DNA of 64,000 nt from an uncultured Chloroflexia bacterium (GTDB lineage Bacteria; Chloroflexota; Limnocylindria; Limnocylindrales; CSP1-4). Numbering within the stretch: position 1 is the first letter of the stretch; the number at the start of each line of letters is the position of its first letter. A program made the position numbers and the translations under genes. A model generated the notes under the pieces. The model worked only from the letters and a program-made list of their open reading frames with translations. It was not told where the DNA came from and did not search any database. Of this stretch, positions 1-17,546 are shown one piece after another. Where the stretch lies: the NCBI GenBank assembly GCA_963766735.1, contig CAVYBU010000030.1:224001-288000 (forward strand), given 5' to 3'.

Positions 1-351
1 TACGTGCACAACGCGACGGTGACGCTGATGCGGACCACCGAGGAGGAATGCGCCGAGCTGGGGCGGATCATCGCCCGCAAGCTCAACCTCGCGAAGGGTC
101 CCCTGACGGTGTTCATCCCCTTGGGCGGCGTCTCGATGATCGCCACGCCGGGTGGCCCCTTCCACGATGCGGCCGCCGATGCGGCCCTGATCCGGGAGCT
201 GAAGGCCGGTCTCCGGCCAGACGTCGAGGTGGTCGAGATGGCCACCGACATCAACGATCCCGCCTTTGCGACGGCGATGGCCGAGCGCCTCGATGCGCAT
301 TACCGCGCATGGGCCGCCGCGAAGGCGCAGGACGAAGGAGGACCCGCATGA
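1..351 (+). CDS. Tm-1-like ATP-binding / UPF0261 family protein, C-terminal part (5' end outside window)
   Basis: Frame 1 reads [13 protein letters not shown]...[14 protein letters not shown]...DINDPAFA, typical of the UPF0261 C-terminus. Its stop overlaps the next start (ATGA at 348-351). Confidence 0.85.
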
Positions 352-1178
352 ACGGGCAACAGGCGCTGGCGCGCCTCCGCGGCACCCTCGACGGGGGTGG
401 CGTGATCATGGGTGCCGGCGCCGGGACCGGCCTCTCCGCCAAGTGCGCAGAGGCCGGCGGCGCGGACCTCATCATCATCTACAACTCCGGGCGGTACCGG
501 ATGGCCGGCCGCGGCTCGCTCGCGGGCTGCATGCCCTACGGCGACGCCAATGCGATCGTGATGGAGATGGCCTCCGAAGTCCTCCCGATCGTCCGGGAGA
601 CACCGGTCCTGGCCGGCGTCTGCGGCACCGATCCGTTCCGACTCATGCCGGTCTTCCTCGAGGAGATCAAGCGGGTCGGGTTCTCCGGCGTCCAGAACTT
701 CCCGACGGTGGGGCTGTGCGACGGCCAGTTCCGCCAGAACCTGGAAGAGACCGGGATGGGCTACGGCCTCGAGGTGGACATGATCGGGGACGCCCACGCG
801 GCTGGCCTCCTGACCACCCCGTACGTCTTCGACCCGGACCAGGCCGCCGCGATGGCGAAGGCCGGAGCTGATGTCGTCGTCGCCCACATGGGCCTCACCA
901 CGAAGGGCGCAATCGGCGCCACCACCGCCCTCACGCTCGAGGCCTCAGCGGAACGGGTCCAGGCGATCCGGGACGCGGCGGTCGCCGTCAAGCCGGACAT
1001 CATCGTCCTGTGCCACGGCGGTCCGATCGCCGAGCCGGAGGATGCCGAGTACGTCCTGTCGCACACCACCGGCGTCGCCGGGTTCTTCGGTGCCTCGAGC
1101 ATGGAGCGGCTCCCGACCGAGATCGCGATCACCGAGAACATGAAGCGCTTCAAGAGGATCGGCCGCGGGGCGGCCTGA
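348..1178 (+). CDS. Phosphoenolpyruvate hydrolase-like TIM-barrel protein (PF09370 type, usual partner of UPF0261)
   Basis: RBS AAGGAGG before ATG 348. Motifs [51 protein letters not shown]. Confidence 0.9.
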
Positions 1179-1218
1179 CCCAGTCATCGTCTCGCTGTAC
1201 GCGAAGGAGGAAGCACCG

Positions 1219-2952
1219 GTGCCCCTCAAGGAAGAAGTCCTCGGCGAGTTCCTCGGGGACGAGACGTTCCCGATCGAATGGACGTCCGAGACCGAGAAGC
1301 TCCTGTTCTGGGTCTACGACGACCTGCACTGCCCGAAGCCGCTCAGCCCGATGTACGAGGACATCGGCGGCTGGTGGCTCTCCTGCGACCACATGTTCCG
1401 CCGCTTCGGCACGCCGTTCGCGTCGGACTGGATCTACAAGAACATCAACGGGTACCTGTACACCACCGCGATCCCGGCCGAGGCCGGCGTTGACGTCGCG
1501 ACGCAGGAGTACAACTACCAGACCCACCCGATCGTCCCCGAGGACAACGAGTACGCGGCGAAGATCGGGGCGTACCTCGGCCTCGTCCTGCCCGTCTACG
1601 GCAACAACTTCACCTTCTGGTGGAAGACCCGCTTCGTCCCGGAGATGCAGCGCAACTTCGACTACATCGAGAGCATGCTCGACCGGAAGGATGAGCTCAG
1701 CCTCGCGGACCTGGCCGTCCTCCTCGAGGACGCCGTCGACATGCACGACCGCCACTGGAAGATCCACTGGATGCTGAACTTCGCGCAGCTCAGCGCGACG
1801 CTCAACCTCAAGGCCGTCATGCAGGAGACGCACGGCAAGGTGGACGACGTCCTCCTCGGCCGCCTCCAGAACTCCGCCGACGACCGGAACTGGGACAAGG
1901 TCCGGGCGCTGTGGGAGATGAAGGAGGAGGTCAAGGGCGACGCCGAGCTGCGGGCCGCCTTCGCCAAGGGCCGTGCCACCGACATCGTCCCCGCCCTGCA
2001 GGCCACCGACCGGGGCCGCCGGTTCATCGACGAGCGGGTGGTCCCGTACCAGAAGGAGTTCGGCTGGCACGCCGTCTGGAGCCACGAGTTCATCTACCCG
2101 AGCTTCCGCGAGGACATGAACCCGGTCATCCAGCTCGTCTGCGACCAGTACACCGAGGACTACGACTACCCGACCAAGGTGGCGGCCCTGGCGGCCGACA
2201 TCGCCGCCGCGGCGAAGGAGATCCTCGAGGGGCTCGAGGGCGAGGCGCTCGACAAGATGCGCGCCGCCAACGAGATCAACCTCAAGATGGCGCCCCTCAC
2301 CCCTGACCACCACTTCTACATCGACCAGGGCGCCAACGCGCACGTCCGCCTCGTGCTCATCGCCATCGGCGAGAAGCTCGTCGAGATGGGCATGCTCGAC
2401 CAGCCGGACGACGTGATCCTGTTCCGCTACAACGCGCTGCGCGCGTTCATGGGCGCTCCGGACGCGGAGTCCGGGCGTGCCATGGCCGCCGCAGGGCGGG
2501 CCAAGCGCGCCGCCGCCGAGCAGATCCGCCCGAAGGACTGGGTCGGCACGGCCACGGCGACGCAACTGGCCTTCCCGTACCTCAACCTGTGGGGCTTCCC
2601 CGACAAGTTCAACCGGCCGCGCGAGATGCACGGCGACACGATCGTCGGCATCGGCGGCTCGCCGGGCGTCGTCGAAGGCACGGCGCGGGTCGTCATGTCC
2701 ACCGACGAGTTCGACAGCCTTGTCCCGGGCGAGATCCTCGTCTGCGAGATGACCAACCCGGCCTGGCAGGTCCTGTACGGGAAGATCATCGCTGTCGTCA
2801 CCAACGCGGGTGACTTCGTCGCCCATCCGGCCGTCCTCGCCCGCGAGTACGAGATCCCGGCGGTGGTTGGGACATCTGTCGGCACCTACCGGATCAAGAC
2901 CGGCGACCGCATCCGCGTGGACGGTGGCGCCGGGTTCGTCAAGATCCTGTAG
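1219..2952 (+). CDS. PEP-utilising enzyme family protein: large helical N-terminal domain plus C-terminal phospho-His swivel domain, no ATP-grasp domain
   Basis: RBS AAGGAGG before GTG. C-terminus GIGGSPGVVEGTARVV...ILVCEMTNPAW...AHPAVLAREYEIPAVVG...RIRVDG is the PEP-utiliser mobile domain with its catalytic His. Confidence 0.85.
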   Translation: MPLKEEVLGEFLGDETFPIEWTSETEKLLFWVYDDLHCPKPLSPMYEDIGGWWLSCDHMFRRFGTPFASDWIYKNINGYLYTTAIPAEAGVDVATQEYNYQTHPIVPEDNEYAAKIGAYLGLVLPVYGNNFTFWWKTRFVPEMQRNFDYIESMLDRKDELSLADLAVLLEDAVDMHDRHWKIHWMLNFAQLSATLNLKAVMQETHGKVDDVLLGRLQNSADDRNWDKVRALWEMKEEVKGDAELRAAFAKGRATDIVPALQATDRGRRFIDERVVPYQKEFGWHAVWSHEFIYPSFREDMNPVIQLVCDQYTEDYDYPTKVAALAADIAAAAKEILEGLEGEALDKMRAANEINLKMAPLTPDHHFYIDQGANAHVRLVLIAIGEKLVEMGMLDQPDDVILFRYNALRAFMGAPDAESGRAMAAAGRAKRAAAEQIRPKDWVGTATATQLAFPYLNLWGFPDKFNRPREMHGDTIVGIGGSPGVVEGTARVVMSTDEFDSLVPGEILVCEMTNPAWQVLYGKIIAVVTNAGDFVAHPAVLAREYEIPAVVGTSVGTYRIKTGDRIRVDGGAGFVKIL

Positions 2953-2978
2953 GCACCGGGAAACCGAGGGACATCGGG

Positions 2979-3683
2979 ATGACCGAGACGGTGATCTCCC
3001 GCGCTGTCCTGAGCGACACTGTCAAGGATCGCCTCCTGGAGGCGATCCTTGACGGCCGGTACCCACCCGGGTCCCGGATCGTGGAGACACGGGCCGCCCG
3101 GGAGTTCGGGACCAGCCAGGCCCCCGTCAGGGAGGCCCTCCGCGACCTCGAGGCGCTCGGCGTCGTGGAGATCTCGCCGTTCCGCGGCGCGCGCGTCCGG
3201 CGACCATCTCGCGAAGAGCTGCTCGAGGCCTACGTCGTCCGTGCGGAGCTCGAGGCCCTCGGGGTCCGGCTGGCCCTCCCCAGGCTGACCCAGGAGGATT
3301 TCGCAGCGCTCGGCGTGTACCTGGAGGAGATGCACCGGGCCGCGGCGGCGGGCGAGATCGTCGAGGAGGTGTCCGCGGACGCGGCCTTCCACGGCTATCT
3401 CGTGGACCGCTCCGGCAATGCCACGCTCAAGCGGGTGTGGGGCATGCTCGAGCCCTACTCGCGAACCTACATCACGATTGCCGTGCCCGGCTCGGACCGC
3501 CAGCGGATCGCCGGGCTCCACGGACCGCTCCTCGACGCCCTCCGCTCCCGTGAGGCGGACAGGGCCGACGCGGCGATCCGCAACCACTTTGCCGATGCCA
3601 GGGCAATGCTCGCCGGCCTCTGGCCAGACGAGTCCGGCGTCGCACCCGGACCATCGCCCGGCCCCGTGCCGGCACGCACCTAG
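2979..3683 (+). CDS. GntR family transcriptional regulator (FCD domain)
   Basis: wHTH motif ILDGRYPPGSRIVETRAAREFGTSQAPVREALRDLE; FCD motif DAAFH...SGN. Confidence 0.92.
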   Translation: MTETVISRAVLSDTVKDRLLEAILDGRYPPGSRIVETRAAREFGTSQAPVREALRDLEALGVVEISPFRGARVRRPSREELLEAYVVRAELEALGVRLALPRLTQEDFAALGVYLEEMHRAAAAGEIVEEVSADAAFHGYLVDRSGNATLKRVWGMLEPYSRTYITIAVPGSDRQRIAGLHGPLLDALRSREADRADAAIRNHFADARAMLAGLWPDESGVAPGPSPGPVPART

Positions 3684-3699
3684 AGACCGAAAGGACACG

Positions 3700-4587
3700 A
3701 TGAACGCCAAGCTGCAACTGACGGAGGAGTTCTCGGCGGGGGCCGCTCGCCTCCGCGTGGACGTGTACGGCGGCGAGCCGCGCGAGCATGTGCTCGACGA
3801 CCTGACCTTCCTCAACTACCGCCTCGCCGACGTCCGCATCTCCCCCGAGGTCACGCTGGCCGACGCCGACATCGTCTGGAACCAGGACGGCGCCAAGAAG
3901 GTCTCGTATGACGGCCGGGTCGTGACCTTCACGGGCGACTGGCCCGCCGGCCCGATCCAGAAGGTGATCGTCGCGGTCCTCGCGCTCCGGATGGAGGCCG
4001 TGGGCCTGCACCCGTCCCACAGCGCGGCCGTCAACTACCGCGGCAAGACCCTGCTGTTCCTGGGCGGCGAGTCCAACCACGGCAAGAGCATGGGCCTCAT
4101 CGAGGCCGGCGTCCGGGGCGCCCTCCAGGTCGCGTCCGAGACGACGGTCATCGACGAGGACGGTCGCGCGGCCATGGGCTCCGTGGACACGTTCCTCGTG
4201 AAGCGCACCGAGGGCACCGAGCGGTCCGACAAGGCCGCGCCCAACAAGGGCGTGGAGAAGTTCTGGGGCGAGATGCCCAGCTGGGGCATGTACCAGGGCA
4301 CGCCGAACATCGACATCGTCATCGTGCCCGCGATCGACGGCAACTTCGACCCGGCGACCAACGCGCTCATCCCGTTCGAGCGCCAGTTCCAGTTCCTCCA
4401 TTCGCTGCAGAACTACTTCCTCACCAACGAGCTGCTGGCCCCGGGCCACGTCATGCCGATGGTGGACAACGATGCGCTCCGAGCGAAGCGCGCGGACTTC
4501 GTCAACAGCTTCTGCGAGCGGCCGTTCTTCTTCATCCGCGCGGCGACCCCCCAGGTCCTCCTGGACGAGGTCGACAAGCTCCTCTAG
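3700..4587 (+). CDS. HPr-kinase-like P-loop protein of unknown function
   Basis: RBS AAGGA before ATG 3700. HSAAV...LLFLGGESNHGKS resembles the HPrK-type Walker A context. Confidence 0.55.
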   Translation: MNAKLQLTEEFSAGAARLRVDVYGGEPREHVLDDLTFLNYRLADVRISPEVTLADADIVWNQDGAKKVSYDGRVVTFTGDWPAGPIQKVIVAVLALRMEAVGLHPSHSAAVNYRGKTLLFLGGESNHGKSMGLIEAGVRGALQVASETTVIDEDGRAAMGSVDTFLVKRTEGTERSDKAAPNKGVEKFWGEMPSWGMYQGTPNIDIVIVPAIDGNFDPATNALIPFERQFQFLHSLQNYFLTNELLAPGHVMPMVDNDALRAKRADFVNSFCERPFFFIRAATPQVLLDEVDKLL

Positions 4588-4607
4588 GCAAGGCTGGGCC
4601 GGTTGTC

Positions 4608-5472
4608 ATGCACACCTTCGCCTACGCTCGGCCCGGCTCCCTGGCCGAGGCGGTCGCGCTCCTCGACGCCCACGGTCCGGACGCCCGCGTCCTGGCCGGG
4701 GGGACGGACCTGATCGTCCGGCTTCGCGACGGGTCGGCCACGCCGTCCGTGGTGATCGACGTCAAGCGGATCGCCGAGCTCCGGCCCGGCATCCGCGAGA
4801 CGGGCGGCCGCGTCGTCATCGGGGCCACGACCGTGATGACGGACGTGGCCGGAGACCCGCTCGTCCGGCGGCACTTCCCGGCGCTGGCGGAGGCCGCCGC
4901 CGTGGTGGGCTCGGTCCAGATCCGGAACCGGGCGACGCTTGCGGGCAACATCTGCAACGCCTCACCGGCAGCGGACACCGCCCCGTCGCTCCTGGTCCAT
5001 GGCGCGTCCGTCGTGGCCGAGGGCCCCGGTGGGACCCGTCGCATCCCCGTCGATGAGCTGTTCGTGCGCTCCGGCGTGACGACGCTCGCCCGGGGGGAGC
5101 TGGTGACCGCGATCGAGCTGCCGATCCCGGCGCTGCGCATCGCGAGCGTCCACGTGCGACGGACGCGCCGTCGGGGCCACGACCTGGCCTCCGTGACGCT
5201 CACCTGCGGCGTTGACGCGACCGGGATGACCCGGATCGCATACGGGAGCGTGGGCCCGCGGGCCGTGCTCGTGACCGACGAGAGCGGCGTCCTGGCGGAT
5301 CCGGCCGCGACGGACGAGGCCAAGGCCCCGATCCTCGAGGCGATGTTCGCTGCCGCCAGCCCGTCCCCACGCTCGATGCGGGCCGGGCCCGGAGTACCGC
5401 CTGGCGATGCTCCGCGTCCTGGGCCGGCGGGCGCTGGCAGCTGCCATCGAACGCCTGGCGGCGGGGGAGTGA
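4608..5472 (+). CDS. Xanthine dehydrogenase family FAD-binding (medium) subunit; +1 frameshift near 5389
   Basis: Motifs LAGGTDL and QIRNRATLAGNICNASPAAD. Removing one C near 5388-5390 restores the end ...PEYRLAMLRVLGRRAL...AGE* (TGA 5470-5472). Confidence 0.85.
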
Positions 5473-5951
5473 GCGACATGGTCGAGATGCATCCCATCGA
5501 GGTCACGGTCAACGGGCGCCTCCGGGCGCTCGAGGTGGCCGGCCACCACTCGCTGCTGGACGTCATCCGCGACGACCTGGGCCTGACCGGCGCCAAGGAG
5601 TGCTGCCTCGTCGGCGAATGCGGTGCCTGCACGGTCATGGTGGACGGGCGCACGGTGGACTCCTGCCTGGTGCTCGCGGTGGAGGTCGACGGTGCGGAGC
5701 TGACGACGGTCGAAGGGCTCGCCGCGGACGGCGAGCTGGCGCCGATCCAGCAGGCGTTCCTGGACAAGGGCGCCGTGCAGTGCGGGTTCTGCATCCCGGG
5801 CCAGCTGATGTCTGCGCACGTGCTGCTCGCGGAGCACGAGCATCCGACCGGGGCCGAGATCGAGGAGGGCATGGCCGGCAACCTGTGCCGGTGCGGGTGC
5901 TACCAGCAGATCACGGACGCGATCCTCGCGGTCGCGGAGGACGGACGATGA
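5469..5951 (+). CDS. Xanthine dehydrogenase family 2x[2Fe-2S] small subunit
   Basis: Motifs GAKECCLVGECGACTV...DSC and QCGFCIPG...GNLCRCGCY. GTG overlaps the upstream TGA; alternative start ATG 5478. Confidence 0.9.
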   Translation: MSDMVEMHPIEVTVNGRLRALEVAGHHSLLDVIRDDLGLTGAKECCLVGECGACTVMVDGRTVDSCLVLAVEVDGAELTTVEGLAADGELAPIQQAFLDKGAVQCGFCIPGQLMSAHVLLAEHEHPTGAEIEEGMAGNLCRCGCYQQITDAILAVAEDGR

Positions 5952-8227: not shown

Positions 8228-9114
8228 GAATCGGCAAGGAGATCGGCCCTGTTGGAGACATGCCGGCCGAGCAGGTCGTCCGCGCGGCGCAGCTGGTGCG
8301 CGAGGGCAGGATGGTCTCCCTCGCGGCGGCACGGTTCCCCGGTATGCCGCTGTTCCCCGGGCACCCGCCGTTCCAGGTGCTCAACTACCGCACCCCGCGC
8401 GGGATCCGCGTGACCGGCGCCCAGCCGTGGGGTCCGGTCAACGACGCCGGCCTGGGCTACATGGCCGAGTACGTGATGGCGACCAGCCACTCTGGTGCCC
8501 ACATGGACGCGCTGGCCCACATGACCGTCGGCGATGACATGCACTGGTACGGCGGCGGCAACGCGGACGAGCACCTGACGGACTTCGGGCCCGTGCACGG
8601 CGATGCGGCCAAGATGCCGCCGTTCTTCACCCGGGGCGTCCTGATCGACGTCCCGACGCACCGGGGCGTGGACTGCCTGCCCAAGGGCTCGCCGATCGAT
8701 GCCGCCGAAGTGGAGGCGATCTGCGCGGCCCAGGGCGTGACCGTCGGGAAGTGGGACGTGGTCGTGATCCGGACCGGCTACATGGGCCTCTGGCCCGATG
8801 CGGAGCGGATGGCTGCCCACAAGACCCCGGGCCCCGACATCTCCGTTGCCCACTGGCTGCTGGAGCGGGGCGTCATCGCGACCGGCACCGACACCGAGAC
8901 CTACGAGGTCCAGCCGGCCCCGGATCCCGGCCCCGAGGGGAACCCGCAGCCCGTTCACACCGCGCTCCTCATCGAGAACGGCGTCTACATCATGGAGAGC
9001 CTGGACCTCGAGGAGCTCGCCCGCCAGCGCATCTACGAGTTCCTGTTCGTCGCGCTGCCGGTCAAGATCCGCGGCGCCACTGGCTCGATGGTCGACCCGA
9101 TCGCGGTCATCTAG
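8224..9114 (+). CDS. Cyclase family (kynurenine formamidase-like) metal-dependent amidohydrolase
   Basis: Metal motif HSGAHMDALAH, plus RTG, GTD and PVKIRGATGSMVDPIAV. Confidence 0.88.
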   Translation: MRIGKEIGPVGDMPAEQVVRAAQLVREGRMVSLAAARFPGMPLFPGHPPFQVLNYRTPRGIRVTGAQPWGPVNDAGLGYMAEYVMATSHSGAHMDALAHMTVGDDMHWYGGGNADEHLTDFGPVHGDAAKMPPFFTRGVLIDVPTHRGVDCLPKGSPIDAAEVEAICAAQGVTVGKWDVVVIRTGYMGLWPDAERMAAHKTPGPDISVAHWLLERGVIATGTDTETYEVQPAPDPGPEGNPQPVHTALLIENGVYIMESLDLEELARQRIYEFLFVALPVKIRGATGSMVDPIAVI

Positions 9115-9145
9115 CCCACGCAACCACGACCAAGGAGTCAACCCG

Positions 9146-10213
9146 ATGTCCGCCGTGCCCTCGACCATGCAGGCCCTCGTCGTCCTCGAGCCCTCGGTGC
9201 TCGAGATCCAGGAGGTCCCGGTCCCCGTGCCCGGACCCAACGAGGTCCTCGCGCGCGTGCGCGCGGTCTCGATCTGCGGCACCGACGCCCACCTGATCCG
9301 GGGCGACTACCCCGGGTTCTGGCCCCCGGCCTTCCCGTTCATCCCGGGACACGAGTGGGCGGGCGAGATCGCGGCCCTGGGCCCCGGGGCCGAGCGCTTC
9401 GGCTGGCAGATCGGCGACCGCGTGGCCGGCACCTCCCATGACGCCTGCGGCGTCTGCCAGAAGTGCGTCGAGGGCCGCTACAACCTGTGCGAGAACTACG
9501 GCAAGGGCGGTCTCCACAAGCAGTACGGCCACAGCGTCCAGGGCGTCGATGCCACCTATGCGGTCCACGGCGTCAAGTGCGTCTTCCCGCTGCCCGACGG
9601 CCTGTCCTTCGCCCAGGGCGCCGTCATCGACCCCGCGTCGATCGGCCTCCACGTCGCCAACCGCGGCAACATCACCCCCGGCGACACGGTGGCGATCACG
9701 GGTGCGGGCGCAATCGGCCTGCTCGCAGGCGACGCCTCGCTGGTGCGCGGCGCGGGCCGCGTGATCATGCTCGAGCGCAACCCCGGCCGGATCGCCAAGG
9801 CCCGCGAGATGGGCTTCGAGACCATCGACTCCGGCGAGGGCGATCCCGTCGCCATCGTCCGCGCGATGACCGACGGCCTGGGCGTGGACGTGGTCCTCGA
9901 GTGTGCCGGCGTGCCGGCCACCGTCCAGCTGGCCCTGGGCATGCTCCGGCGCGGAGGACGATGCGCGGCGGTCGGGATCCCGACCCTGGGCGTGGAGATC
10001 GCCATGCAGCGGCTGGTGCTCGACGAGCTGGAGCTGGTCGGCTGCCGGGCGTCCGCGGGCGAGATGCGGCGCGTCATGCCCCTGGTGGAGCAGGGCCGGA
10101 TCAGGGTGGACGACATCATCACCCACCACTTCCCGCTGTCCGACTACCCGTCCGCCCTGGCCACGTTCAACGACCCGGCGAGCGGCGCGATCAAGATCAT
10201 CGTCGAACCCTAG
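9146..10213 (+). CDS. Zn-dependent alcohol dehydrogenase (MDR), copy 1
   Basis: RBS AAGGAG. Motifs ICGTD, GHE, CGVCQKC..G..NLC, GAGAIG. Confidence 0.92.
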   Translation: MSAVPSTMQALVVLEPSVLEIQEVPVPVPGPNEVLARVRAVSICGTDAHLIRGDYPGFWPPAFPFIPGHEWAGEIAALGPGAERFGWQIGDRVAGTSHDACGVCQKCVEGRYNLCENYGKGGLHKQYGHSVQGVDATYAVHGVKCVFPLPDGLSFAQGAVIDPASIGLHVANRGNITPGDTVAITGAGAIGLLAGDASLVRGAGRVIMLERNPGRIAKAREMGFETIDSGEGDPVAIVRAMTDGLGVDVVLECAGVPATVQLALGMLRRGGRCAAVGIPTLGVEIAMQRLVLDELELVGCRASAGEMRRVMPLVEQGRIRVDDIITHHFPLSDYPSALATFNDPASGAIKIIVEP

Positions 10214-10242
10214 AGCCGCCGAGCGGCGCCCCGAGCAAGAGG

Positions 10243-12417
10243 ATGTCCCTGCCCGTGACCCACGTCTACGCCTACGACCACCGCCACGACCTGCCGCTCA
10301 CCGAGCTCGCCCTGGTCATCGGCGGCAAGGCCGCCAACATCGCCACGATGGCCACGGAGCTGGGGCTCCCGGTCCCGCCGGCGTTCACGATCAGCACCGT
10401 GGCCTGCAACGAGTACCTCGCGACCGGCTGGCCGGACGGCCTGGACGACGAGATCCGCGAACACCTGGCGCGGATGGAGCAGCTCGTGGGCCGCCGCTTC
10501 GGGGACGCGGCGGACCCGCTGCTGGTCAGCGTCCGGTCGGGTGCCCCCCGCTCCATGCCCGGCATGATGGACACGATCCTCAACCTGGGCCTCAACGACT
10601 CCACCGAGGCGGGCCTGGCGGCGGCGTCCGGTGACCCGGTCTTCGCGGCGGACTGCCATGCGCGCTTCCGCAAGATCTACCAGGACGTCGTGGGCGTCAG
10701 CGTTGTCCCGCAGGACCCGTGGCAGCAGCTCCGGGGCGCCATCGAGGCCGTGTTCCGGTCCTGGAACAGCGACCGCGCCCGTGCCTACCGCGCCCACGAG
10801 GGGATCAGCGAATCCCTGGGCACGGGCGTGACGGTGCAGACGATGGTGTTCGGCAACCGTGGCGCAGACTCCGGGACCGGCGTGCTGTTCACCCGCAACC
10901 CGGCCACCGGCGAGAACGCCTTCTATGGCGACATCATGTTCAACGCCCAGGGCGAGGATGTGGTCGCTGGCACGCACAGGACCGAGGACGTGCGGATCCT
11001 CGACGATCGCATGCCGGCCGTGGCGGCAGAGCTCCGCGGCTACGCCACGACCCTCGAGCACCGCTACCGGGACTGCTGCGACATCGAGTTCACCATCGAG
11101 CAAGGCCGCCTCTGGATGCTCCAGGTTCGCGTGGGCAAGCGCACGCCCCAGGCGGCCCTGCGCATGGCTGTCGAGATGGCCGAGGACGAGGCGTTCCCGC
11201 TGTCGCGCGAGGAGGCGGTCCGCCGCGTGGCCGCGATCCTCACCACGCCCCCCACCACCGTCACCGGCCGCTCCGATGCCGGCCCTGCGTTGACGAGAGG
11301 CCTGGCGGCCTCCCCGGGTGTCGCCTGCGGAGAGATCGTCCTGACGCCCGAAGCTGCGGTCGCGGCCGCGGACGCCGGGCGCCGGGTCATCCTCGTCCGG
11401 TCCGAGACATCCCCGGACGACGTCCACGGCATGAGCCGGGCGGCCGGGATCCTGACCAGCACCGGCGGCTTTGTCAGCCATGCGGCGGTCGTCGCACGAG
11501 GGTGGGGAATCCCGGCTGTGGTCGGAGCCCCGGGCGTGGTGCTCGGGGAGGGGAGCGTCGCGATCGGTGGGACCGTCCTGTCCGCGGGTGACACGATCAC
11601 CATCGACGGTGCCAGCGGCGACGTGTTCCTCGGCGCAACGGCGGGCGCCTCCCAGGTGGTCCCCGAGGCGGCGACGCTTCTCGGGTGGGCCCGGGACCTG
11701 GGGATCGAGATCGACGTGGCGACGGCAGAGGAGGAGGCGGAGGCCATGACCGAGAACACGCCCGACGCAGGGCCTGGACCGACGGCCGCCAGTGCGGGCA
11801 TCTCGCCGGACGATGCCATCCGCGTCCTGGTGGTCAAGGGGTACGCAGGCCCGGACGGCATCGCGACAGCACTCCGTTGTAGGGAGGAGGACGCGGCGGC
11901 CATGCTGGACCGCCTGGTGGCGGACGGCATCGCCGAGATGGCCGCCGGCTCCTTCCGCCTCACCGCGGACGGCAAGGCGATCGGTGCCGAGAAGATCGCC
12001 GAGGACCGGGCGACCTGGGGCGTTGACAACGCCCTCGCCGCGCTGGACACGTTCCTGGTCCTGGACCACCGGATGAAGGACACGGTCACCGCCTGGCAGA
12101 TGCGAGAGGCGGACGGCGCCCAGACGTTCAACGACCACAGCGACGCGGACTACGACGCAGCGGTGCTGGCGCGCCTTGCGGCGCTCCACGAAGACGCTGC
12201 CGCCTGGCTGGCGCCGCTTGTCGCCGGCCTGCCTCGCCTAGCCGCGTACCGGGAGCGCCTGGAGCTTGCCGCCGCAAGAGCCGCTTCCGGTGATGGCAAG
12301 TACGTGGCGTCGCCACGGGTGGACAGCTACCACAGCATCTGGTTCGAGCTGCACGAGGATCTCATCCTCCTCGCCGGCCGCAACCGTGCCGACGAGGTTG
12401 CCGCGGGGCGGGCGTGA
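10243..12417 (+). CDS. ppdK: Truncated pyruvate,phosphate dikinase (ATP-grasp plus His-swivel, no pyruvate TIM barrel) fused to an Rv1126c-like C-terminal domain
   Basis: PPDK motifs GGKAAN, LLVSVRSGA..SMPGMMDTILNLG, QGEDVV, DIEFTIE, SHAAVVARGWG. C-terminus AWQMR...NDHSDADYD...DSYHSIWFELHEDL resembles, from recall, the mycobacterial Rv1126c family. Confidence 0.8.
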   Translation: MSLPVTHVYAYDHRHDLPLTELALVIGGKAANIATMATELGLPVPPAFTISTVACNEYLATGWPDGLDDEIREHLARMEQLVGRRFGDAADPLLVSVRSGAPRSMPGMMDTILNLGLNDSTEAGLAAASGDPVFAADCHARFRKIYQDVVGVSVVPQDPWQQLRGAIEAVFRSWNSDRARAYRAHEGISESLGTGVTVQTMVFGNRGADSGTGVLFTRNPATGENAFYGDIMFNAQGEDVVAGTHRTEDVRILDDRMPAVAAELRGYATTLEHRYRDCCDIEFTIEQGRLWMLQVRVGKRTPQAALRMAVEMAEDEAFPLSREEAVRRVAAILTTPPTTVTGRSDAGPALTRGLAASPGVACGEIVLTPEAAVAAADAGRRVILVRSETSPDDVHGMSRAAGILTSTGGFVSHAAVVARGWGIPAVVGAPGVVLGEGSVAIGGTVLSAGDTITIDGASGDVFLGATAGASQVVPEAATLLGWARDLGIEIDVATAEEEAEAMTENTPDAGPGPTAASAGISPDDAIRVLVVKGYAGPDGIATALRCREEDAAAMLDRLVADGIAEMAAGSFRLTADGKAIGAEKIAEDRATWGVDNALAALDTFLVLDHRMKDTVTAWQMREADGAQTFNDHSDADYDAAVLARLAALHEDAAAWLAPLVAGLPRLAAYRERLELAAARAASGDGKYVASPRVDSYHSIWFELHEDLILLAGRNRADEVAAGRA

Positions 12418-12439
12418 CCGCGTCCCGGGAGGAGAAGGC

Positions 12440-13212
12440 ATGAGCGTCGAGGGTCGCCGGATCGTCGTCACCGGGGCGTCCAGCGGGCTCGGCGCACACA
12501 CCGTTCGCCTGCTCGCTGGGCGTGGGGCACAGGTCGTGGCCGCCGGCCGGCGGCTGGATCGCCTGGAGGCGCTCGCCGCGGAGCTCGCGGACGCCCCGGG
12601 CGCGTGGTTCCAGTGTGCGCGGACGTCACGGTGGAGGACGACGTGGCTGCGCTCATGGCGGCCGCCGTCGCCGCCCTCGGCGGCATCGACGTCCTCGTCA
12701 ACAACGCCGGCAGCGAGGTCCAGGGCCCCATCGACCGGCTGTCCCTGGACGACTTCGAGGGCATGTTCCGGGCCAACGCCGTCAGCGTGTTCCTGTGCGT
12801 GCGGGCGGCCCTGCCCGCGCTCCGCGAGAGCCGGGGCATGGTCGTCAACCTGGGATCCACGGTGGTCGCGCGCCCGCCGCGCGGTCGTTTCGGCTACGTC
12901 GCGAGCAAGGGCGCCGTGGAGGCGATGTCCAGGGGTCTCGCCGTGGACCTGGGGCGGGACGGGATCCGGGTCAACTGCATCCGGCCCGGGATCATCCCGT
13001 CCGAGCTTCGCGGCCTGACCGAGGACGAGGAGCGGGCGCGGTTCGAGGCGGGGCTCCACTTCGGGCGCCAGGCGCTCTCGACGGTAGGGGAGGGCCGCGA
13101 CGTGGCCGAGGCCATCGCCTGGCTCTGTGGAGAGGGCGGCCGCTTCGTCACGGGTACGGTGATCGACATCGACGGCGGCTTCACGCTCGGGACGGCGGAC
13201 GTCCTGGGCTGA
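12440..13212 (+). CDS. SDR family oxidoreductase; frameshift near 12600
   Basis: TGASSGLG in one frame and NNAG...YVASK in another, joined by a 1-nt indel at ccgggcgcgtgg. RBS GGAGGAG. Confidence 0.85.
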
Positions 13213-13271
13213 CGTCGTCGGTCGACGAACGACCCGGTTGCCGGGCGACCCGGTCGTCGCGTCGCCAGGCC

Positions 13272-13313
13272 TCGCGCCCTGTCCCTACGGGTTCGCGCCC
13301 TGTCCCTACGGGT
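13272..13313. repeat. Exact 21-bp tandem duplication (tcgcgccctgtccctacgggt x2) overlapping the stop codon of ADH copy 2
   Basis: Read directly: 13272-13292 equals 13293-13313. Confidence 0.9.
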
Positions 13314-14370
13314 TGACCAGGATCTTGATCGCTCCGGATGAGCGGTCGTTGAACGTGGCCAGCGCCTCCGCGTAGTCCGCGAGGGCGAACCGGTGGGTCA
13401 CCATCTCGCGGACCCGCATGTTGCCCTGCTCCACGTGAGGGATCACGCGCCGCATCTCGCCGGCGGATGCCCGCGACCCGACAAGCTCCAGCTCGTCGAG
13501 GACCAGGCGCTGCATGGCAATCTCCACGCCCACCGTCGGGATCCCGACCGCCGCGCATCGCCCCCCGCGCCGGAGCATCTCCAGCGCCGCCTCGACCATC
13601 TGCGGGACGCCCGCGCACTCCAGCACCACGTCCACGCCATAGCCTCCGGTCATCGCCCGGACCGTGCCCACCGGATCGCCGGCCGCGGTGTTGACCGTCT
13701 CGAAGCCCATGGCCGCCGCCTTGGCCAGCCGATGGCCACGGCCCACGACGATGACCCGCCCGGCTCCCCGGATCCGCGCCGCATCGCCGCCGAGCAGGCC
13801 GATCGCGCCCGCACCCGTGATCGCCACCGTGTCGCCGGGGGTGATGTTGCCGCGGTTGGCGACGTGGAGCGCAATCGACGCGGGGTCGATCATCGCCCCG
13901 TCCTCGAAGGAGAGGCTGTCCGGGAGGGCGAAGATCGTCTTGACGCCCTGGACGACGTAGGTGGCATCGGCGCCCTGGACGCTGTGGCCGTACTGGCGGT
14001 GCAGCCCCTCGCGCCCGTAGTTCTCGCACAGGTTGTAGCGGCCCTCGACGCATTCGCGACAGACGCCGCAGGCATCGTGGGAGGTACCGGCCACGCGGTC
14101 GCCGACCTGCCAGCCGAAGCGCTCGGCCCCGGGACCCAGGGCCGCGATCTCGCCCGCCCACTCGTGCCCCGGGATGAACGGGAAGGCCGGGGGCCAGAAC
14201 CCGGGGTAGTCGCCCCGGATCAGGTGGGCGTCGGTGCCGCAGATCGAGACCGCGCGCACGCGCGCGAGGACCTCGTTGGGTCCGGGCACAGGGACCGGGA
14301 CCTCCTGGATCTCGAGCACCGAGGGCTCGAGGACGACGAGGGCCTGCATGGTCGAGGGCACGGCGGACAT
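13306..14370 (-). CDS. Zn-dependent alcohol dehydrogenase (MDR), copy 2
   Basis: Same motifs as copy 1. RBS and 5' coding region are nearly identical to 9128-9430. Confidence 0.92.
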   Translation of the reverse strand: MSAVPSTMQALVVLEPSVLEIQEVPVPVPGPNEVLARVRAVSICGTDAHLIRGDYPGFWPPAFPFIPGHEWAGEIAALGPGAERFGWQVGDRVAGTSHDACGVCRECVEGRYNLCENYGREGLHRQYGHSVQGADATYVVQGVKTIFALPDSLSFEDGAMIDPASIALHVANRGNITPGDTVAITGAGAIGLLGGDAARIRGAGRVIVVGRGHRLAKAAAMGFETVNTAAGDPVGTVRAMTGGYGVDVVLECAGVPQMVEAALEMLRRGGRCAAVGIPTVGVEIAMQRLVLDELELVGSRASAGEMRRVIPHVEQGNMRVREMVTHRFALADYAEALATFNDRSSGAIKILVNP

Positions 14371-14432
14371 CGGGTTGACTCCTTGGTCTGTGGACCGGAC
14401 CACCGACCCGCCGTTGGGACGCTCAGAGGCGA

Positions 14433-15326
14433 TCAGCGCGGCGGCGCGTCCTTGGCCGGATACGTGGTGCTCGTGGGGGCGGTGAACTTGTCGTAGAGCG
14501 CCCCGGCGTTCCGCTCCTGGATGTAGTCCATCATGTATTCCTGCCCGATATCCACCGGGTAGCGCTCGGCGAAGTTGACGCGCGCCATCGTCTCCTCGCG
14601 GGTCCAGCCCTTGGCAACGGCGATGGCCACGGCGGCCTTCCACTCGAGCATGAACGAGCGCTGGGTCGCGAGGTATGCCTTTCCCTGAACGGGTCCGTGA
14701 CCCGGGATGACGTGGTCGATGTCCAGGGCGCGGATCCGGTCGAGGGCCAGGATCCACTGGTCGACATCCGAGGTCATCAGCCAGGTGGTGCACTCCGAGA
14801 AGATGGTGTCGCCGGTGAACACGGCGCGCTCTTCCGGGACGTACACGGCGACCTGGCCCGGGGTGTGTCCGGGGGTGTGGAGCAGGTGGAACGTGCGATC
14901 GCCAACCTTGAGCGTCACGTCGCCCGAGAAGACGATGTCCGCGGTGCCCATGTTCGCGTAGTAGGTCTCGCGGTCGGGGACCAGCGCGGCGCCGTCCGGG
15001 TCGTCGGTCGGCAGCGCCTCGAGCGCGTACTCGAACGGATCCAGCTCCGGGTAGACGGTCATGAACCGCTCGTGGACGCCCTGGTGGTGGATGATCGGGC
15101 CGGCGCCCTTGAACCAGTAGTTGCCGAAGATGTGGTCGACGTGGTGCTCGGTGTTGATCACGTACTGGATCGTCCCGTGCTCCTCGACCTGCTTGCGCAT
15201 CGCGACGGCCTTCGTCGGCAGCTGCGGCGTGTCGATGACGACAGGCCCCTTGGACGTCAGCACGAAGGACGGGTTGCAGCCGCGCACCTTGGTCTCGGCG
15301 AAGATTCGGTCGGTGACCTGCTGCAT
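14433..15326 (-). CDS. Metallo-beta-lactamase fold hydrolase
   Basis: Motifs TEHHVDHIFGN (HxHxDH-like), GHT, TGD, PGHG. RBS GGGAG before MQQVTDR. Confidence 0.88.
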   Translation of the reverse strand: MQQVTDRIFAETKVRGCNPSFVLTSKGPVVIDTPQLPTKAVAMRKQVEEHGTIQYVINTEHHVDHIFGNYWFKGAGPIIHHQGVHERFMTVYPELDPFEYALEALPTDDPDGAALVPDRETYYANMGTADIVFSGDVTLKVGDRTFHLLHTPGHTPGQVAVYVPEERAVFTGDTIFSECTTWLMTSDVDQWILALDRIRALDIDHVIPGHGPVQGKAYLATQRSFMLEWKAAVAIAVAKGWTREETMARVNFAERYPVDIGQEYMMDYIQERNAGALYDKFTAPTSTTYPAKDAPPR

Positions 15327-15348
15327 GGCTGGAGGCTCCCTCTGCGTG

Positions 15349-16134
15349 CTACTGGGTTGCGGTGAGGCCGCCATCGACGCCCAGGACCTGGCCGGTGACG
15401 AAGCCGGCGGCGTCTGAGGCCAGGAAGACGACCGGGCCGGTCATGTCCGACGTGTCGCCGACGCGCCCGAGCGGAATGCGGTTGACGACGCCGGCCTTGA
15501 AGGCAGGGTCGTCGAGCAGCATCGCGACCTGGGGGGTGTCAACGAAGGTGGGGCGGATGGCGTTGACCCGGATCCCGTGCTTCGCCCATTCGGTCGCCCA
15601 CTGGCGGGTCAGGGAGCTGATAGCCCCCTTCGCGGCCACGTATGCCGAGTAGCCCGCGTTGATCCCGAGGTCCGCCCGTACCGAGCTGATGTTGACGACG
15701 ACGCCGCCGTTGCCGGCCTTGATCATCGCCTTGACGGCGGCCTGGGTTGCGAGCAGCGTCGAGCGGACGTTGAGCTCCATGATCCAGTCCCAGTCGTCCC
15801 GCGGGTAGTCCTGGGCATCGTGGAGCACCTTGCCAGCGCCGCCGCCGACGCAGTTGACGATGATGTCCACCTTGCCGAACCGCTCGACGGTGGCGGCGAC
15901 GATGCTCTCGCAGCCGGCCTCGCTCGTGACGTCCGCAGACAGGGCCAGGACCTCGGCGCCGGTCGCGCGGATGGTCTCCGCGGCCGCGTCGGCGCGCTCC
16001 TGCGTCACGTCCACGACGGTGACCTTCGCGCCCGCACCAGCCAGGGCTCCCGCGATCGCCGACCCGATGGCGCCGCCACCGCCGGGAACCAGGGCCACCT
16101 TGCCCTCGAGGCTGAAGACATCGAGATAGCTCAT
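15349..16134 (-). CDS. SDR family oxidoreductase (gluconate-5-dehydrogenase-like)
   Basis: Motifs GGGGAIG, NISS, YVAAK, VDGG. RBS GGGAGGGAG. Confidence 0.9.
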   Translation of the reverse strand: MSYLDVFSLEGKVALVPGGGGAIGSAIAGALAGAGAKVTVVDVTQERADAAAETIRATGAEVLALSADVTSEAGCESIVAATVERFGKVDIIVNCVGGGAGKVLHDAQDYPRDDWDWIMELNVRSTLLATQAAVKAMIKAGNGGVVVNISSVRADLGINAGYSAYVAAKGAISSLTRQWATEWAKHGIRVNAIRPTFVDTPQVAMLLDDPAFKAGVVNRIPLGRVGDTSDMTGPVVFLASDAAGFVTGQVLGVDGGLTATQ

Positions 16135-16174: not shown

Positions 16175-16203
16175 CACGTATCATCGATTATCGAGCATAC
16201 GTG
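16175..16203. promoter_or_regulatory. 29-bp near-perfect palindrome CACGTATCATCGAT-T-ATCGAGCATACGTG, candidate operator of the leftward SDR-MBL-ADH operon
   Basis: Arms match at 12 of 14 positions. AT-rich island about 40 bp upstream of the SDR start. Confidence 0.65.
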
Positions 16204-16313: not shown

Positions 16314-16622
16314 TCAGTCGGCGGGTGCGAACAGCCGGGCCCAGCCGTCGTACGGGCGCAGGCCCATCACCTCGAACGTGAGGATGCCCGCCTTGACGAA
16401 CGGAAGCGATGCCAGCGCCTCGCGCGCGGCGTCCTCATCCGGCGCCTCGAGGATCATGACGCTCATGCGGGCGCCCGTGCGGAAGCTGATCTCGCGCACG
16501 GTCCCGGCCTGGTGGAGCTCCCAGGCACGTCGTGCCTCCGCACGACCAAGGGCTTGCGCCTCGTCGCTGGAGAAGCCGGGAAAGGTGCTGTCCACTTCGG
16601 AACCGAGGGCGAGGAAACGCAT
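16314..16622 (-). CDS. Small muconolactone-isomerase/YCII-like dimeric alpha-beta barrel protein
   Basis: AEARRAWELHQAGTVREI...LEA...A...LASLPFVKAG. TACGAT lies 6 nt before ATG 16622 (leaderless). Confidence 0.7.
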   Translation of the reverse strand: MRFLALGSEVDSTFPGFSSDEAQALGRAEARRAWELHQAGTVREISFRTGARMSVMILEAPDEDAAREALASLPFVKAGILTFEVMGLRPYDGWARLFAPAD

Positions 16623-16663
16623 GTCCTGATCGTACCGCCGTTGGCAGGCCAGGTGGGGACCGG

Positions 16664-17449: not shown

Positions 17450-17509
17450 GCCCCCCACGCTAGCACCCACCTTCCCGCGGGCGGAAGGCGCCCGGACACG
17501 CCGGATCAG

Positions 17510-17546
17510 GGGTGGGGCTTGGGGTGGCCTACGGGGCTCGAACCCG
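17510..17546. repeat. att-like direct repeat (tRNA-His 3' end plus 10 bp flank); partner at 19462-19498
   Basis: gggtggggcttggggtggcctacggggctcgaacccg is identical at both sites. Confidence 0.92.

Follow-up and report, generated by a model that had tools for sequence, protein, structure and literature searches.

Two-protein dikinases are encoded in the catabolic clusters of several bacteria, namely HpeHI in Rhodococcus rhodochrous GD02, CreHI in Corynebacterium glutamicum, PpsAB in Thauera aromatica, and AcvAB in Sphingobium SYK-6, and the article text states that HpeHI, CreHI, and PpsAB phosphorylate a phenolic hydroxyl via a swivel histidine (PMC12167813). A kinase of another family, the UPF0261 protein MarK (Saro_1862, PDB 9MPY), is described as phosphorylating acetovanillone and other aromatics with conversion of ATP to ADP (PMC12624787), and by the accounts in both articles the phenolic hydroxyl is the target of every characterised relative of the two kinase families (PMC12624787, PMC12167813). 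A further precedent is the 3hpd cluster of Ensifer adhaerens HP1, in which the genes of the 3-hydroxypyridine dehydrogenase HpdA1-4 are accompanied by orf9, a 'pyruvate-phosphate dikinase', and orf10, a 'PEP-utilizing protein mobile subunit'; according to the preprint's text, the dikinase-like and the swivel gene are both essential for the molybdenum (Mo) hydroxylase, and the mechanism was left open (bioRxiv 10.1101/2020.01.08.898148). This preprint was the only link between a dikinase and a Mo hydroxylase found in the literature covered, which consisted of papers apart from their supplements. The locus described here occupies positions 1-16134 of a 64,000-nucleotide stretch (hereafter the window; C30:224001-288000 of genome G000) in the 3.6 Mb, 35-contig, 70% GC assembly of an uncultured Chloroflexia bacterium of Limnocylindria type, and it encodes a putative dikinase split over two proteins (G3 and G10), a P-loop protein (G5), a Mo hydroxylase (G6 and G7), and a GntR regulator (G4). 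The reading favoured here, with moderate confidence and at the level of the general mechanism, is that the region makes up most of one GntR-controlled catabolic regulon, in which the split dikinase transfers phosphate to a ring hydroxyl and Mo-dependent oxidation and opening of the ring follow. An initial annotation of this DNA, made from the sequence alone, had called the cluster uncharacterised; it has a precedent in the Ensifer Mo hydroxylase, which in the preprint needs a pyruvate phosphate dikinase (PPDK)-like gene and a 'PEP-utilizing mobile subunit' gene (bioRxiv 10.1101/2020.01.08.898148).

Genes were called by frame analysis of the GC content at third codon positions (GC3) together with Pfam and NCBIfam scans, and every gene call in positions 1-16134 is backed by the GC3 frames. 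By these frames and scans, the genes and domains named in the initial annotation are present and correctly placed. The core genes and their parts, in window positions, are as follows.

1219-2952, plus strand: G3, 577 aa, substrate-binding and swivel protein without an ATP-grasp domain (PF00391 at residues 503-572 is the sole Pfam match)
2824-2826, plus strand: codon of G3 His536, the phospho-carrier predicted from conservation, in the motif TNAGDFVAH
2979-3683, plus strand: G4, GntR/FCD regulator, presumed repressor of the regulon (PF00392 and PF07729)
3700-4587, plus strand: G5, 295-aa P-loop protein of an orphan family with a mini-PEPCK fold (AlphaFold2 model and Foldseek)
4063-4089, plus strand: P-loop GGESNHGKS of G5 (conserved residues)
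4608-5951, plus strand: G6, fused FAD-binding and 2x[2Fe-2S] subunits of the xanthine dehydrogenase (XDH) family (PF00941 and PF01799)
5948-8227, plus strand: G7, molybdopterin subunit of the XDH family (PF02738, PF20256, PF01315)
10243-12417, plus strand: G10, 724 aa, truncated PPDK (PPDK_N and swivel, without the PF02896 barrel)
10243-11277, plus strand: ATP-grasp domain of G10, PPDK lineage (PF01326)
11278-11652, plus strand: swivel of G10 (PF00391, E 1.5e-22), with the His413 codon at 11479-11481 in the motif GGFVSH
11800-12417, plus strand: G10C, winged-helix and four-helix-bundle domain of G10 at the site of the PEP/pyruvate barrel (AlphaFold2 model)

G3 consists of a substrate-binding domain and a C-terminal swivel homologous to the C-terminal part of rifampin phosphotransferase (RPH). 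Its scores stay below the cut-offs of the NCBIfam models RedH, PigC, RPH, and PRK08296; the alignments cover residues 200-576 with RedH, 209-576 with PigC, and 138-577 with PRK06241.2-2 at E values of 1e-32 to 1e-35, RPH matches the swivel, and residues 377-577 align with the Listeria RPH 5fbs (E 3.2e-20). All 20 sequences compared down to 38% identity have His536, and in a set of 77 it is at least 98% conserved (G3 orthologues, n = 76).

G10 descends from the PPDK lineage and carries both an ATP-grasp domain and a swivel histidine, His413, which is at least 98% conserved in 37 orthologues. Its N-terminal 470 residues align with the Clostridium PPDK 1kbl (E 2.6e-119), and the protein scores 527 bits against TIGR01828 and 502.1 bits against NCBIfam NF004531 (cut-off 456), the latter over residues 25-486; residues 520-724 are not covered by this model. 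In Pfam, PF01326 and PF00391 are the sole matches, and the PF02896 barrel was not found there even at E 0.1. G10 thus shares the ATP-grasp domain and swivel histidine with PPDK and NF004531 (PRK05878), but differs in the missing barrel, in the replaced regulatory threonine (GGFVSH), and in an appended 205-residue winged helix-turn-helix (wHTH) and helical bundle. The PDRP-type regulatory threonine is absent from both swivels of the locus, which read VSH in G10 and VAH in G3. The initial annotation was right that G10 had lost its barrel, yet the protein is not simply truncated, as the extra C-terminal domain is conserved.

The two proteins complement each other within the genome. Of the genome's three ATP-grasp PPDK_N proteins, G10 alone is without a substrate domain, and of its four swivels, G3 alone is without an ATP-grasp domain. 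In the other two PPDK_N proteins, ATP-grasp and swivel are joined in a single reading frame, which leaves G3 and G10 as the only complementary pair. An ATP-grasp-only gene is not found in this genome, and the 324-397-aa ATP-grasp type is present in Thermomicrobium roseum and in archaeal-type loci. Counts of related loci refer to the best 80 of at least 589 G3 relatives (one-genome-per-species contigs), among which 46 loci of at least 20 kb were taken as full-length. G10 stands in 45 of these 46, which bears out the earlier proposal that the swivel protein without ATP-grasp and the ATP-grasp-swivel protein without barrel belong together.

The extra domain of G10 (G10C, residues 520-724) is strongly conserved, with the invariant motifs NDHxDxxYD, SYH, and HE(D), and has no Pfam match. 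Its AlphaFold2 model (pLDDT 95.1) displays a MarR-like winged helix followed by a four-helix bundle. Foldseek returned no match at E 0.001 or better, and VIA-align matched residues 1-73 to MarR-type wHTH proteins (Z about 12) and residues 71-193 to a generic helical bundle, at Z values that are usual for helical proteins; because these structural matches are generic, no functional fold is assigned. The domain also exists as a free-standing 206-aa gene on a Diaphorobacter plasmid (37% identity, profile E 5e-57), flanked by a G3-like gene on one side and a truncated PPDK of 506 aa on the other, a trio that adjoins Rieske dioxygenases and has no pterin enzyme beside it. A free 207-aa version lies beside G3 in archaeal-type metagenome loci, and in metagenome locus L128 the domain is fused behind a complete PF02896 barrel. 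As G10C occurs both free-standing and behind a full barrel, the sequences suggest that G10 is a PPDK-G10C fusion minus the barrel.

The P-loop protein G5 belongs to an orphan family. No Pfam (E 0.1) or NCBIfam match was obtained, and the Hpr_kinase_C domain is not detected in it. Its relatives amount to 177 representatives among 1.84 billion proteins, mostly fragments, and the full-length distant members come, by their source names, from Gaiellaceae, Nitrososphaerales, Thermococcus species, WOR-3, and subsurface metagenomes. In Foldseek, the AlphaFold2 model (pLDDT 91.3) matched ATP-dependent PEP carboxykinase (ATP-PEPCK) best, over the whole length (about 350 columns, E 3.2e-7, probability 1.0, identity 10-14%), followed by the C-terminal domain of HprK/P over the P-loop part only (119-187 columns, E 3.3e-4). 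In the Atlas, the nearest clusters have been named 'PEP carboxykinase family protein' automatically and are assigned to no Pfam family. The P-loop follows GxxxxGK[ST] with a conserved histidine ahead of it, and G123, E124, N126, G128, and K129 are invariant in 21 sequences. G5 therefore shares the P-loop PEPCK-like fold with ATP-PEPCK and HprK/P, but it is not a member of the ATP-PEPCK family: it has 295 residues instead of the about 530 of the two-domain enzyme, its likeness is one of fold only, and it occurs almost only beside G3-type genes. The earlier description of G5 as an HPrK-like P-loop protein is sound at the superfamily level, and a mini-PEPCK fits better given the whole-length PEPCK match and the partial HprK/P match. 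A complex prediction for G3 and G5 (alignments A5 and A2; score 0.00, mark 0.32, controls not run) has no bearing either way.

The co-occurrence of these genes, which the initial annotation had proposed as a check, recurs in the 80 related loci far beyond chance. All 80 are metagenome-assembled genomes of Limnocylindria-type Chloroflexota at 64-92% identity, and despite variable flanks they share the order G3-GntR-G5-FAD/FeS-Mo-(cyclase-ADH)-G10, where ADH denotes an alcohol dehydrogenase; G10 directly follows the Mo genes where the cyclase and ADH genes are absent. Each core gene is present in 43-46 of the 46 full-length loci:

GntR: 46 of 46
Mo subunit: 46 of 46
G5: 45 of 46
G10: 45 of 46
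FAD/FeS subunit: 43 of 46

The conserved core is thus G3, GntR, G5, the Mo enzyme, and G10. The accessory genes are less constant:

cyclase: 40 of 46
ADH: 39 of 46
cupin: 35 of 46
transketolase: 31 of 46
UPF0261: 20 of 46
PF09370: 17 of 46

Among 151 sampled genomes of the class, G3 is present in 32 and G5 in 29, all 29 G5 genomes have G3 on the same contig, and none has G5 only. The family of the window's genome has G5 in 26 of 44 other sampled genomes, and several genera are polymorphic in step for G3 and G5 (g3 in 4 of 9 genomes, g4 in 3 of 9, g6 in 1 of 5, g8 in 1 of 3). Since the two genes are concordant across these polymorphic genera, the cluster is an accessory unit that is gained and lost jointly.

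Distant G5 relatives were found in 44 metagenome loci (31-55% identity, GC 33-68%), 27 of which reach at least 9 kb. The genes next to G5 in these 27 are:

G3: 15
ATP-grasp: 15
aldehyde ferredoxin oxidoreductase (AFOR) type: 15
cyclase: 12
cupin: 10
HMGL-like: 8
XDH-type Mo enzyme: 8
free-standing G10C: 6

An XDH-type or AFOR-type enzyme is present in 23 of the 27, and PpsB-like PPDK_N-only proteins of 358-397 aa make up three of the six ATP-grasp genes that were Pfam-scanned in seven distant loci. In locus L097 (10074-12743), a DMSO reductase (DMSOR)-type molybdopterin enzyme and a 4Fe-4S subunit directly follow the G5 homologue, with two AFOR genes and a UPF0261 gene nearby. Since the distant loci pair with AFOR, XDH, and DMSOR types, the kinase set is older and wider than its pairing with Mo hydroxylases and accompanies unrelated pterin enzymes. 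The anaerobe-type metagenome locus L096 (96-15354) holds a G3-like gene, three PF09370 genes, a RuBisCO-like gene, AFOR, cupin, G5, HMGL-like, and cyclase genes, and a complete 852-aa PPDK. In the cultured Thermomicrobium roseum, a megaplasmid carries the arrangement ABC-UPF0261-PF09370-GntR-cyclase-ATP-grasp-...-G3-Mo.

The window's pair resembles HpeHI, CreHI, PpsAB, and AcvAB as they are described (PMC12167813) in that a substrate-binding protein with a C-terminal swivel histidine, homologous to the C-terminal two thirds of RPH, is combined with a separate ATP-grasp protein in a catabolic cluster. It differs from the HpeHI type as described there in several respects. The ATP-grasp partner is not a separate protein of about 340 aa with a PEP-synthase-like motif but a 724-aa protein of PPDK type, which keeps its own PF00391 swivel histidine and carries the wHTH and four-helix domain; G5 is obligatory in this lineage; the set is tied to a pterin oxidoreductase and not to a P450 or a carboxylase; and G3 reads TNAGDFVAH in place of T/SxxGGxxxH.

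Around this core, positions 1-16134 hold the end of an operon of about 19 kb and one convergent operon, with the remaining features listed here.

1-351, plus strand: G1, last 116 codons of a 416-aa UPF0261 (Tm-1/MarK-like) ATP-binding protein whose gene starts 899 bases before the window (PF23189, E 3.8e-33)
348-1178, plus strand: G2, PF09370 'PEP hydrolase-like' TIM barrel (E 1.2e-130)
8260-9114, plus strand: G8, cyclase-family metal hydrolase, candidate ring-opening enzyme (PF04199, E 3.5e-24; alternative start 8224)
9146-10213, plus strand: G9, Zn-dependent ADH (PF08240 and PF00107)
about 12455-13212, plus strand: G11, short-chain dehydrogenase/reductase (SDR) that passes from frame 2 to frame 1 through loss of one base near 12600 (PF13561 in the 3' portion; translations)
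13306-14370, minus strand: G12, second Zn-ADH, inverted paralogue of G9 (Pfam)
14433-15326, minus strand: G13, metallo-beta-lactamase (MBL)-fold hydrolase (PF00753, E 2.8e-24)
15349-16134, minus strand: G14, gluconate-5-dehydrogenase-like SDR, first gene of the G14-G13-G12 operon (PF13561, E 1.1e-61)
16183-16194, no strand assigned: operator-like site ATCGATTATCGA(GCATAC), 49 bases upstream of G14, a motif shared with promoters of 70 of the 80 related loci

The order in the long operon is ABC importer, UPF0261, PF09370, G3, GntR, G5, Mo hydroxylase, cyclase-type hydrolase, Zn-ADH, truncated PPDK, and SDR; the plus-strand gaps range from -4 to 40 bases, and with five upstream ABC-transporter genes the co-directional run reaches about 19 kb. 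The cluster extends about 20 kb beyond the upstream edge of the window, where a cupin gene, a PF09370-UPF0261-PF09370 set, RpiB and TIM genes, a second Liv-type ABC system, and a cupin gene followed by a split transketolase are found. That second PF09370-UPF0261-PF09370 set (L003 9021-13398; C30:213021-217401) has its UPF0261 gene split over two frames and adjoins the convergent TIM/RpiB genes with the same operator; the RpiB scores 153 bits against D-erythrulose-4-phosphate isomerase, below the cut-off of 240. The two enzymes that the initial annotation had called amidohydrolase-type are the cyclase-family G8 and the MBL-fold G13, and neither belongs to the amidohydrolase superfamily.

A shared operator connects these operons. 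AT-rich sites of the form ATCGAT(T/G/C)ATCGA occupy promoters, two in front of the long operon and others in front of the cupin-transketolase/ABC operon, TIM, RpiB/PF09370, and G14 (16183). Across the 3.6 Mb genome, the operator ATCGATNATCGA is matched exactly at 17 places and the reversed control at none; C30:192-240 kb accounts for eight of the 17, and several of the remaining ones are intragenic G-variants or lie on near-copy contigs. In the relatives, 199 sites are distributed over 70 of the 80 loci, nearly all in promoters of the G3/UPF0261, the divergent cupin-transketolase, and the SDR-MBL operons, and the exact sites in four relatives adjoin the cluster, except one in genome G098. The classical FCD/GntR box TNGTNNNACNA was dropped as a candidate after a single, intragenic match in 37 kb.

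The same operator points to a possible lower pathway outside the cluster. On contig C4, a site with the same extended sequence as the G14 site precedes an operon of iolB (frameshifted), a transaldolase-like (TAL-like) gene, and MMSDH (611.7 bits, cut-off 448.5). Of the 80 related loci, 39 have the TAL-like gene and 18 have MMSDH less than 10 kb away from G3; in genomes G038 and G122 the TAL-like gene is 0.4-1.2 kb from G3 on the opposite strand, and in G038 an exact operator site stands between the two. The polyol that the initial annotation had offered as one option for the substrate is consistent with this regulon content. Inside the window's cluster there are no iol genes, and no IolC above the cut-off exists in the genome (best 77.8 bits against 300). 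A separate inositol island (L134/L131, C4:68-100 kb) holds two IolD, two IolE, and two IolG-type genes together with a rhizopine-type binding protein, and a second TAL-like gene adjoins IolD there.

Some of the enzymes give hints on chemistry. The ADHs G9 and G12 have scyllo-inosose 3-dehydrogenase IolM as their best NCBIfam match, below threshold (G9 199.9 bits, cut-off 450), and G14 scores 215 bits against NF006070, also below the cut-off. The PF04199 cyclase family, in the article's account, includes isatin hydrolase and the C-C-cleaving dihydrophloroglucinol cyclohydrolase and can hydrolyse C-C bonds of cyclic diketones (PMC10470551). The binding protein of the ABC importer is uninformative on the substrate: its best solved relative is the 'extracellular ligand-binding receptor' 4zpj (E 5.8e-39), binders of aromatic-acid and urea type come next and match weakly, and the NCBIfam model of the urea substrate-binding protein gives 66 bits (cut-off 492). 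Pyridoxine catabolism was considered and rejected, with 116 bits for the SDR against pyridoxal 4-dehydrogenase and 34 bits for the MBL protein against 4-pyridoxolactonase (cut-offs 325).

From the gene content, conservation, co-occurrence, folds, conserved histidines, and shared operator, a sequence of chemical steps, a direction of phosphotransfer, and a type of substrate may be inferred. G10 would bind ATP in its PPDK-type ATP-grasp domain, and the phosphoryl group would be carried on a swivel histidine to a substrate held by G3, the carrier being G3 His536, possibly charged via G10 His413. An imported ring compound would receive the phosphoryl group at a hydroxyl (or enol), and the XDH-family Mo enzyme would then oxidise or hydroxylate the activated compound with water. 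The Zn-ADH, SDR, and the cyclase-family and MBL-fold metal hydrolases would open the ring, and the transketolase, the TAL-like aldolase, and the CoA-acylating malonate-semialdehyde dehydrogenase would lead the products into central metabolites. G5 would be the obligatory third member of the kinase set, most likely a small-molecule kinase or phosphotransferase acting on the phosphorylated intermediate. It is plausible that catabolism proceeds by phosphorylation, then Mo-dependent oxidation, then opening of the ring. As to the substrate, the evidence leans towards a polyhydroxylated carbocycle or a (hetero)aromatic ring that drains into an inositol-type lower pathway; a polyhydroxylated ring is favoured over a classical aromatic or maleamate route because of the transketolase, TIM, RpiB, TAL-like, MMSDH, and iolB genes, the IolM-like ADHs, and the C-C hydrolysis known from the cyclase family.

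Several observations weigh against this mechanism. G5 was not found by tblastn or profile HMM in T. roseum or on the Diaphorobacter plasmid, and hypothetical proteins of 304 and 205 aa there are not detectably G5 or G10C; as G3-type systems exist in both without it, G5 is not universally required. Three of the 151 sampled class genomes have G3 without G5. Most loci counted here come from one class and are kin, so that the counts are not independent events and part of the synteny is inherited. The motif TNAGDFVAH corresponds to the dikinase motif with its second glycine replaced by aspartate, and G10 retains a conserved swivel histidine that a simple HpeI-like partner would not need. Within the window, the operator has five matches with at most one mismatch against 0.98 expected, and two of 100 shuffles reach five, which is not significant; the case for the operator therefore rests on the whole genome and the relatives. 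The connection to iolB, the TAL-like gene, and MMSDH consists of one operator site in this genome together with synteny in relatives. Finally, the 3hpd authors are reported in the preprint's text to have seen no phosphorylated intermediate (bioRxiv 10.1101/2020.01.08.898148), and kinases of this kind may for that reason not act on the substrate at all.

A wider reading is offered as speculative and rather unlikely. In it, G3, the ATP-grasp protein, G5, and G10C would form a portable, ancient 'phospho-activation' cassette that serves XDH-, AFOR-, and DMSOR-type pterin (Mo/W) enzymes in bacteria and archaea: phosphorylation of a polyhydroxylated carbocycle (polyphenol or cyclitol-derived ketone) at a ring hydroxyl or enol would enable a water-dependent pterin enzyme to introduce, shift, or eliminate an oxygen function, and G5 would then pass on or recover the phosphate, for example in the missing IolC-like step. 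The phosphoryl group might travel over up to three histidines, namely G10 His413, the invariant histidine of the G10C bundle, and G3 His536.

Among the competing explanations, a direct orthologue of the 3hpd pathway has to be weighed, in which 3-hydroxypyridine or a close N-heteroaromatic phenol is converted to a dihydroxypyridine and enters the maleamate pathway. Comparison of domain content with the preprint's text shows the same combination of XDH-family Mo hydroxylase, PPDK-like protein, PEP-utilizing swivel, GntR regulator, and ABC transporter, the preprint lists orthologous clusters in Thermoleophilia and Rubrobacteria (bioRxiv 10.1101/2020.01.08.898148), and the action of the characterised kinase relatives on phenolic hydroxyls would suit such a substrate. 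However, the Pfam matches of the cluster and the 20 kb upstream include no separate SRPBCC subunit (HpdA3 in the preprint) and no genes of the maleamate pathway (hpdBCDE), and the regulon holds transketolase, TIM, RpiB, TAL-like, MMSDH, and iolB genes instead. G5, G10C, the cyclase-type hydrolase, the ADH/SDR enzymes, the cupin-transketolase genes, and the TAL-like/MMSDH connection are found in the window's system only, as far as the preprint's text describes its counterpart. The distant versions, moreover, pair the kinases with AFOR in anaerobe-type loci. An orthologous 3hpd pathway is accordingly judged improbable.

The kinase set might also leave the substrate alone and provide ATP-dependent activation or maintenance of the pterin enzyme, or protein phosphorylation together with an HprK/P-like G5. 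Its company with three unrelated pterin families (XDH-type, AFOR-type, and one DMSOR-type) would fit such a role, as would the lack of a phospho-intermediate in the 3hpd study, according to its text, though both genes are essential, and the P-loop core that G5 has in common with HprK/P. But G3 retains a large, highly conserved binding domain of small-molecule type homologous to RPH, PigC, and HpeH; the Diaphorobacter trio stands beside Rieske dioxygenases; neither swivel has the PDRP-type threonine; and G5 follows PEPCK along its whole length and HprK/P only in part. Only a small probability is given to enzyme activation, and phosphorylation of the substrate by the split dikinase is preferred to it.

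The initial annotation itself had seen a dismembered PPDK/PEP synthase working as one machine, with G10 as ATP-grasp and swivel, G3 as second swivel, the PF09370 protein as the pyruvate barrel, and UPF0261 as an accessory. All three domain types do stand in one operon, PF09370 is by name among the PEP/pyruvate-type barrels, and UPF0261 and PF09370 recur beside G3 (23 of 80 loci, and T. roseum) and share the operator. Across the 80 locus maps, however, PF09370 is never found except adjoining UPF0261, it is present in only 17 of the 46 full-length loci, and the G3-G10 pairing is retained at the loci without it, which most G3-G10 loci are. In the plant protein Tm-1, as described, UPF0261 and PF09370 are fused in one protein (PMC5028733), so that the barrel belongs with UPF0261 and not with PPDK. 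The barrel on the G10-like protein of L128 is a genuine PF02896, and the genome's two further PF09370 genes and second UPF0261 gene lie upstream, away from any swivel protein. This machine is therefore very unlikely, and PF09370 does not qualify as its third module.

The sequences indicate instead that UPF0261 and PF09370, rather than supplying the lost PPDK barrel, are a separate, optional module of MarK-type kinase in the same regulon. Clear homology over both domains places G1 in UPF0261: the 300 residues upstream of the window match Tm-1 (E 3.6e-70) and MarK 9MPY (E 4.4e-56), the N terminus reads LGTLDTKG, and the lysine of the DTK motif is present, as in a MarK-type protein. The statement that UPF0261 had no established bacterial function is outdated, MarK being described as an ATP-dependent aromatic kinase (PMC12624787). 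G1 is paired with a PF09370 barrel as in Tm-1, whereas MarK, by the gene list in the paper, has no PF09370 partner and stands in a carboxylase operon (PMC12624787); here the pair is an optional add-on to the dikinase/Mo operon. G2 is 76% identical to its T. roseum counterpart, and the PF09370/UPF0261 pair has 76% and 69% identity to T. roseum, against 45% for G3 and 36% for the Mo subunit.

An ATP-driven reductive dehydroxylation is as unlikely as the dismembered PPDK machine. In this scheme, the dikinase would make a phosphate leaving group, which a Mo enzyme like 4-hydroxybenzoyl-CoA reductase (4-HBCR) or, in anaerobes, a BamB-like AFOR would remove reductively. The nearest solved relative of G7 by a wide margin is the 4-HBCR alpha subunit (E 2.4e-94, 320.6 bits), followed by quinoline 2-oxidoreductase (E 5e-67, 230.3 bits), and its top NCBIfam match is also a 4-HBCR model, TIGR03194. 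Ring-reducing members exist in both the XDH and the AFOR families, which would suit this scheme. The TIGR03194 score of 425 bits, however, lies far below the cut-off of 994.55, and the four-cysteine [4Fe-4S] insert that forms the loop of the 4-HBCR beta subunit was not found in the FAD part of G6. The sole genetic precedent, 3hpd, is in the preprint's account a hydroxylation (bioRxiv 10.1101/2020.01.08.898148). Since G6 lacks the extra [4Fe-4S] loop, the oxidative direction is kept as the more likely one for the Mo-dependent step.

That G10 is an independent, actinobacterial NF004531-type truncated PPDK with a housekeeping or regulatory role and a mere neighbour of the G3 operon is the least probable of all, for although G10 passes the NF004531 cut-off and a barrel-less 'PPDK' family therefore exists outside the G3 context, G10 accompanies G3 in 45 of the 46 full-length loci and directly follows the Mo genes when cyclase and ADH are missing, the trio of G3-like protein, G10C, and truncated PPDK recurs on a betaproteobacterial plasmid, and G3 has no other ATP-grasp partner in the genome.

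A few features of the assembly accompany the locus. Frame breaks occur in three regulon genes, namely G11 (about 12593-12601), the upstream UPF0261 gene (L003 11313-12589), and iolB (L131 5844-6714). G11 is one base short when aligned with the intact orthologue in locus L025, and one low-depth contig of run X1, from another sample, has an extra C behind 12593 at the break; because of this extra base, assembly indels and real or recent pseudogenes are indistinguishable at the frame breaks. The two ADH genes form inverted repeats, 9128-9766 with 13750-14388 (639 nt, 90%) and 9788-10213 with 13306-13731 (426 nt, 77%), which bracket G10 and G11, and at other loci the two ADHs stand in tandem and are not inverted. 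Contig C13 repeats the cupin-transketolase-ABC operon (C30:201225-213048) at 96.8% identity, and the end of contig C32 is a 98.3% copy of C4:96.8-103.3 kb; strain heterogeneity or duplicate assembly is the cause. Beyond the cluster (16317-18857), a 95-aa muconolactone-isomerase-like open reading frame, a YwiC-like membrane protein, and a family-2 glycosyltransferase are apparently unrelated to it. Matches in sequencing runs are short, low-depth contigs, none of which spans the stretch. In the sediment metatranscriptome X20 (share 0.18), short contigs are identical to the G10 parts 10246-10389 and 11551-11721, a weak hint of transcription for which carry-over of DNA is possible.

Why some Mo hydroxylases need a PPDK-like kinase pair is an unanswered question that dates back to the 3-hydroxypyridine work of 2020. 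The coupling of kinase and Mo enzyme is no curiosity of one plasmid: it forms a conserved and co-regulated unit in a major soil and freshwater group of Chloroflexota, and relatives of the kinase set accompany tungsten-type enzymes in anaerobe-type and archaeal-type loci. Two unnamed protein families, the mini-PEPCK G5 and the barrel-replacing G10C, gain confident models, and Thermomicrobium roseum DSM 5159 offers testable partners in a cultured organism. If the cassette reading were true, it would mean a new ATP-coupled chemistry of pterin enzymes and would link the breakdown of polyphenols to an inositol-type lower pathway. Should an abundant polyhydroxylated ring compound derived from plants or soil turn out to be the substrate, the system would bear on carbon turnover by this uncultured, widespread lineage.

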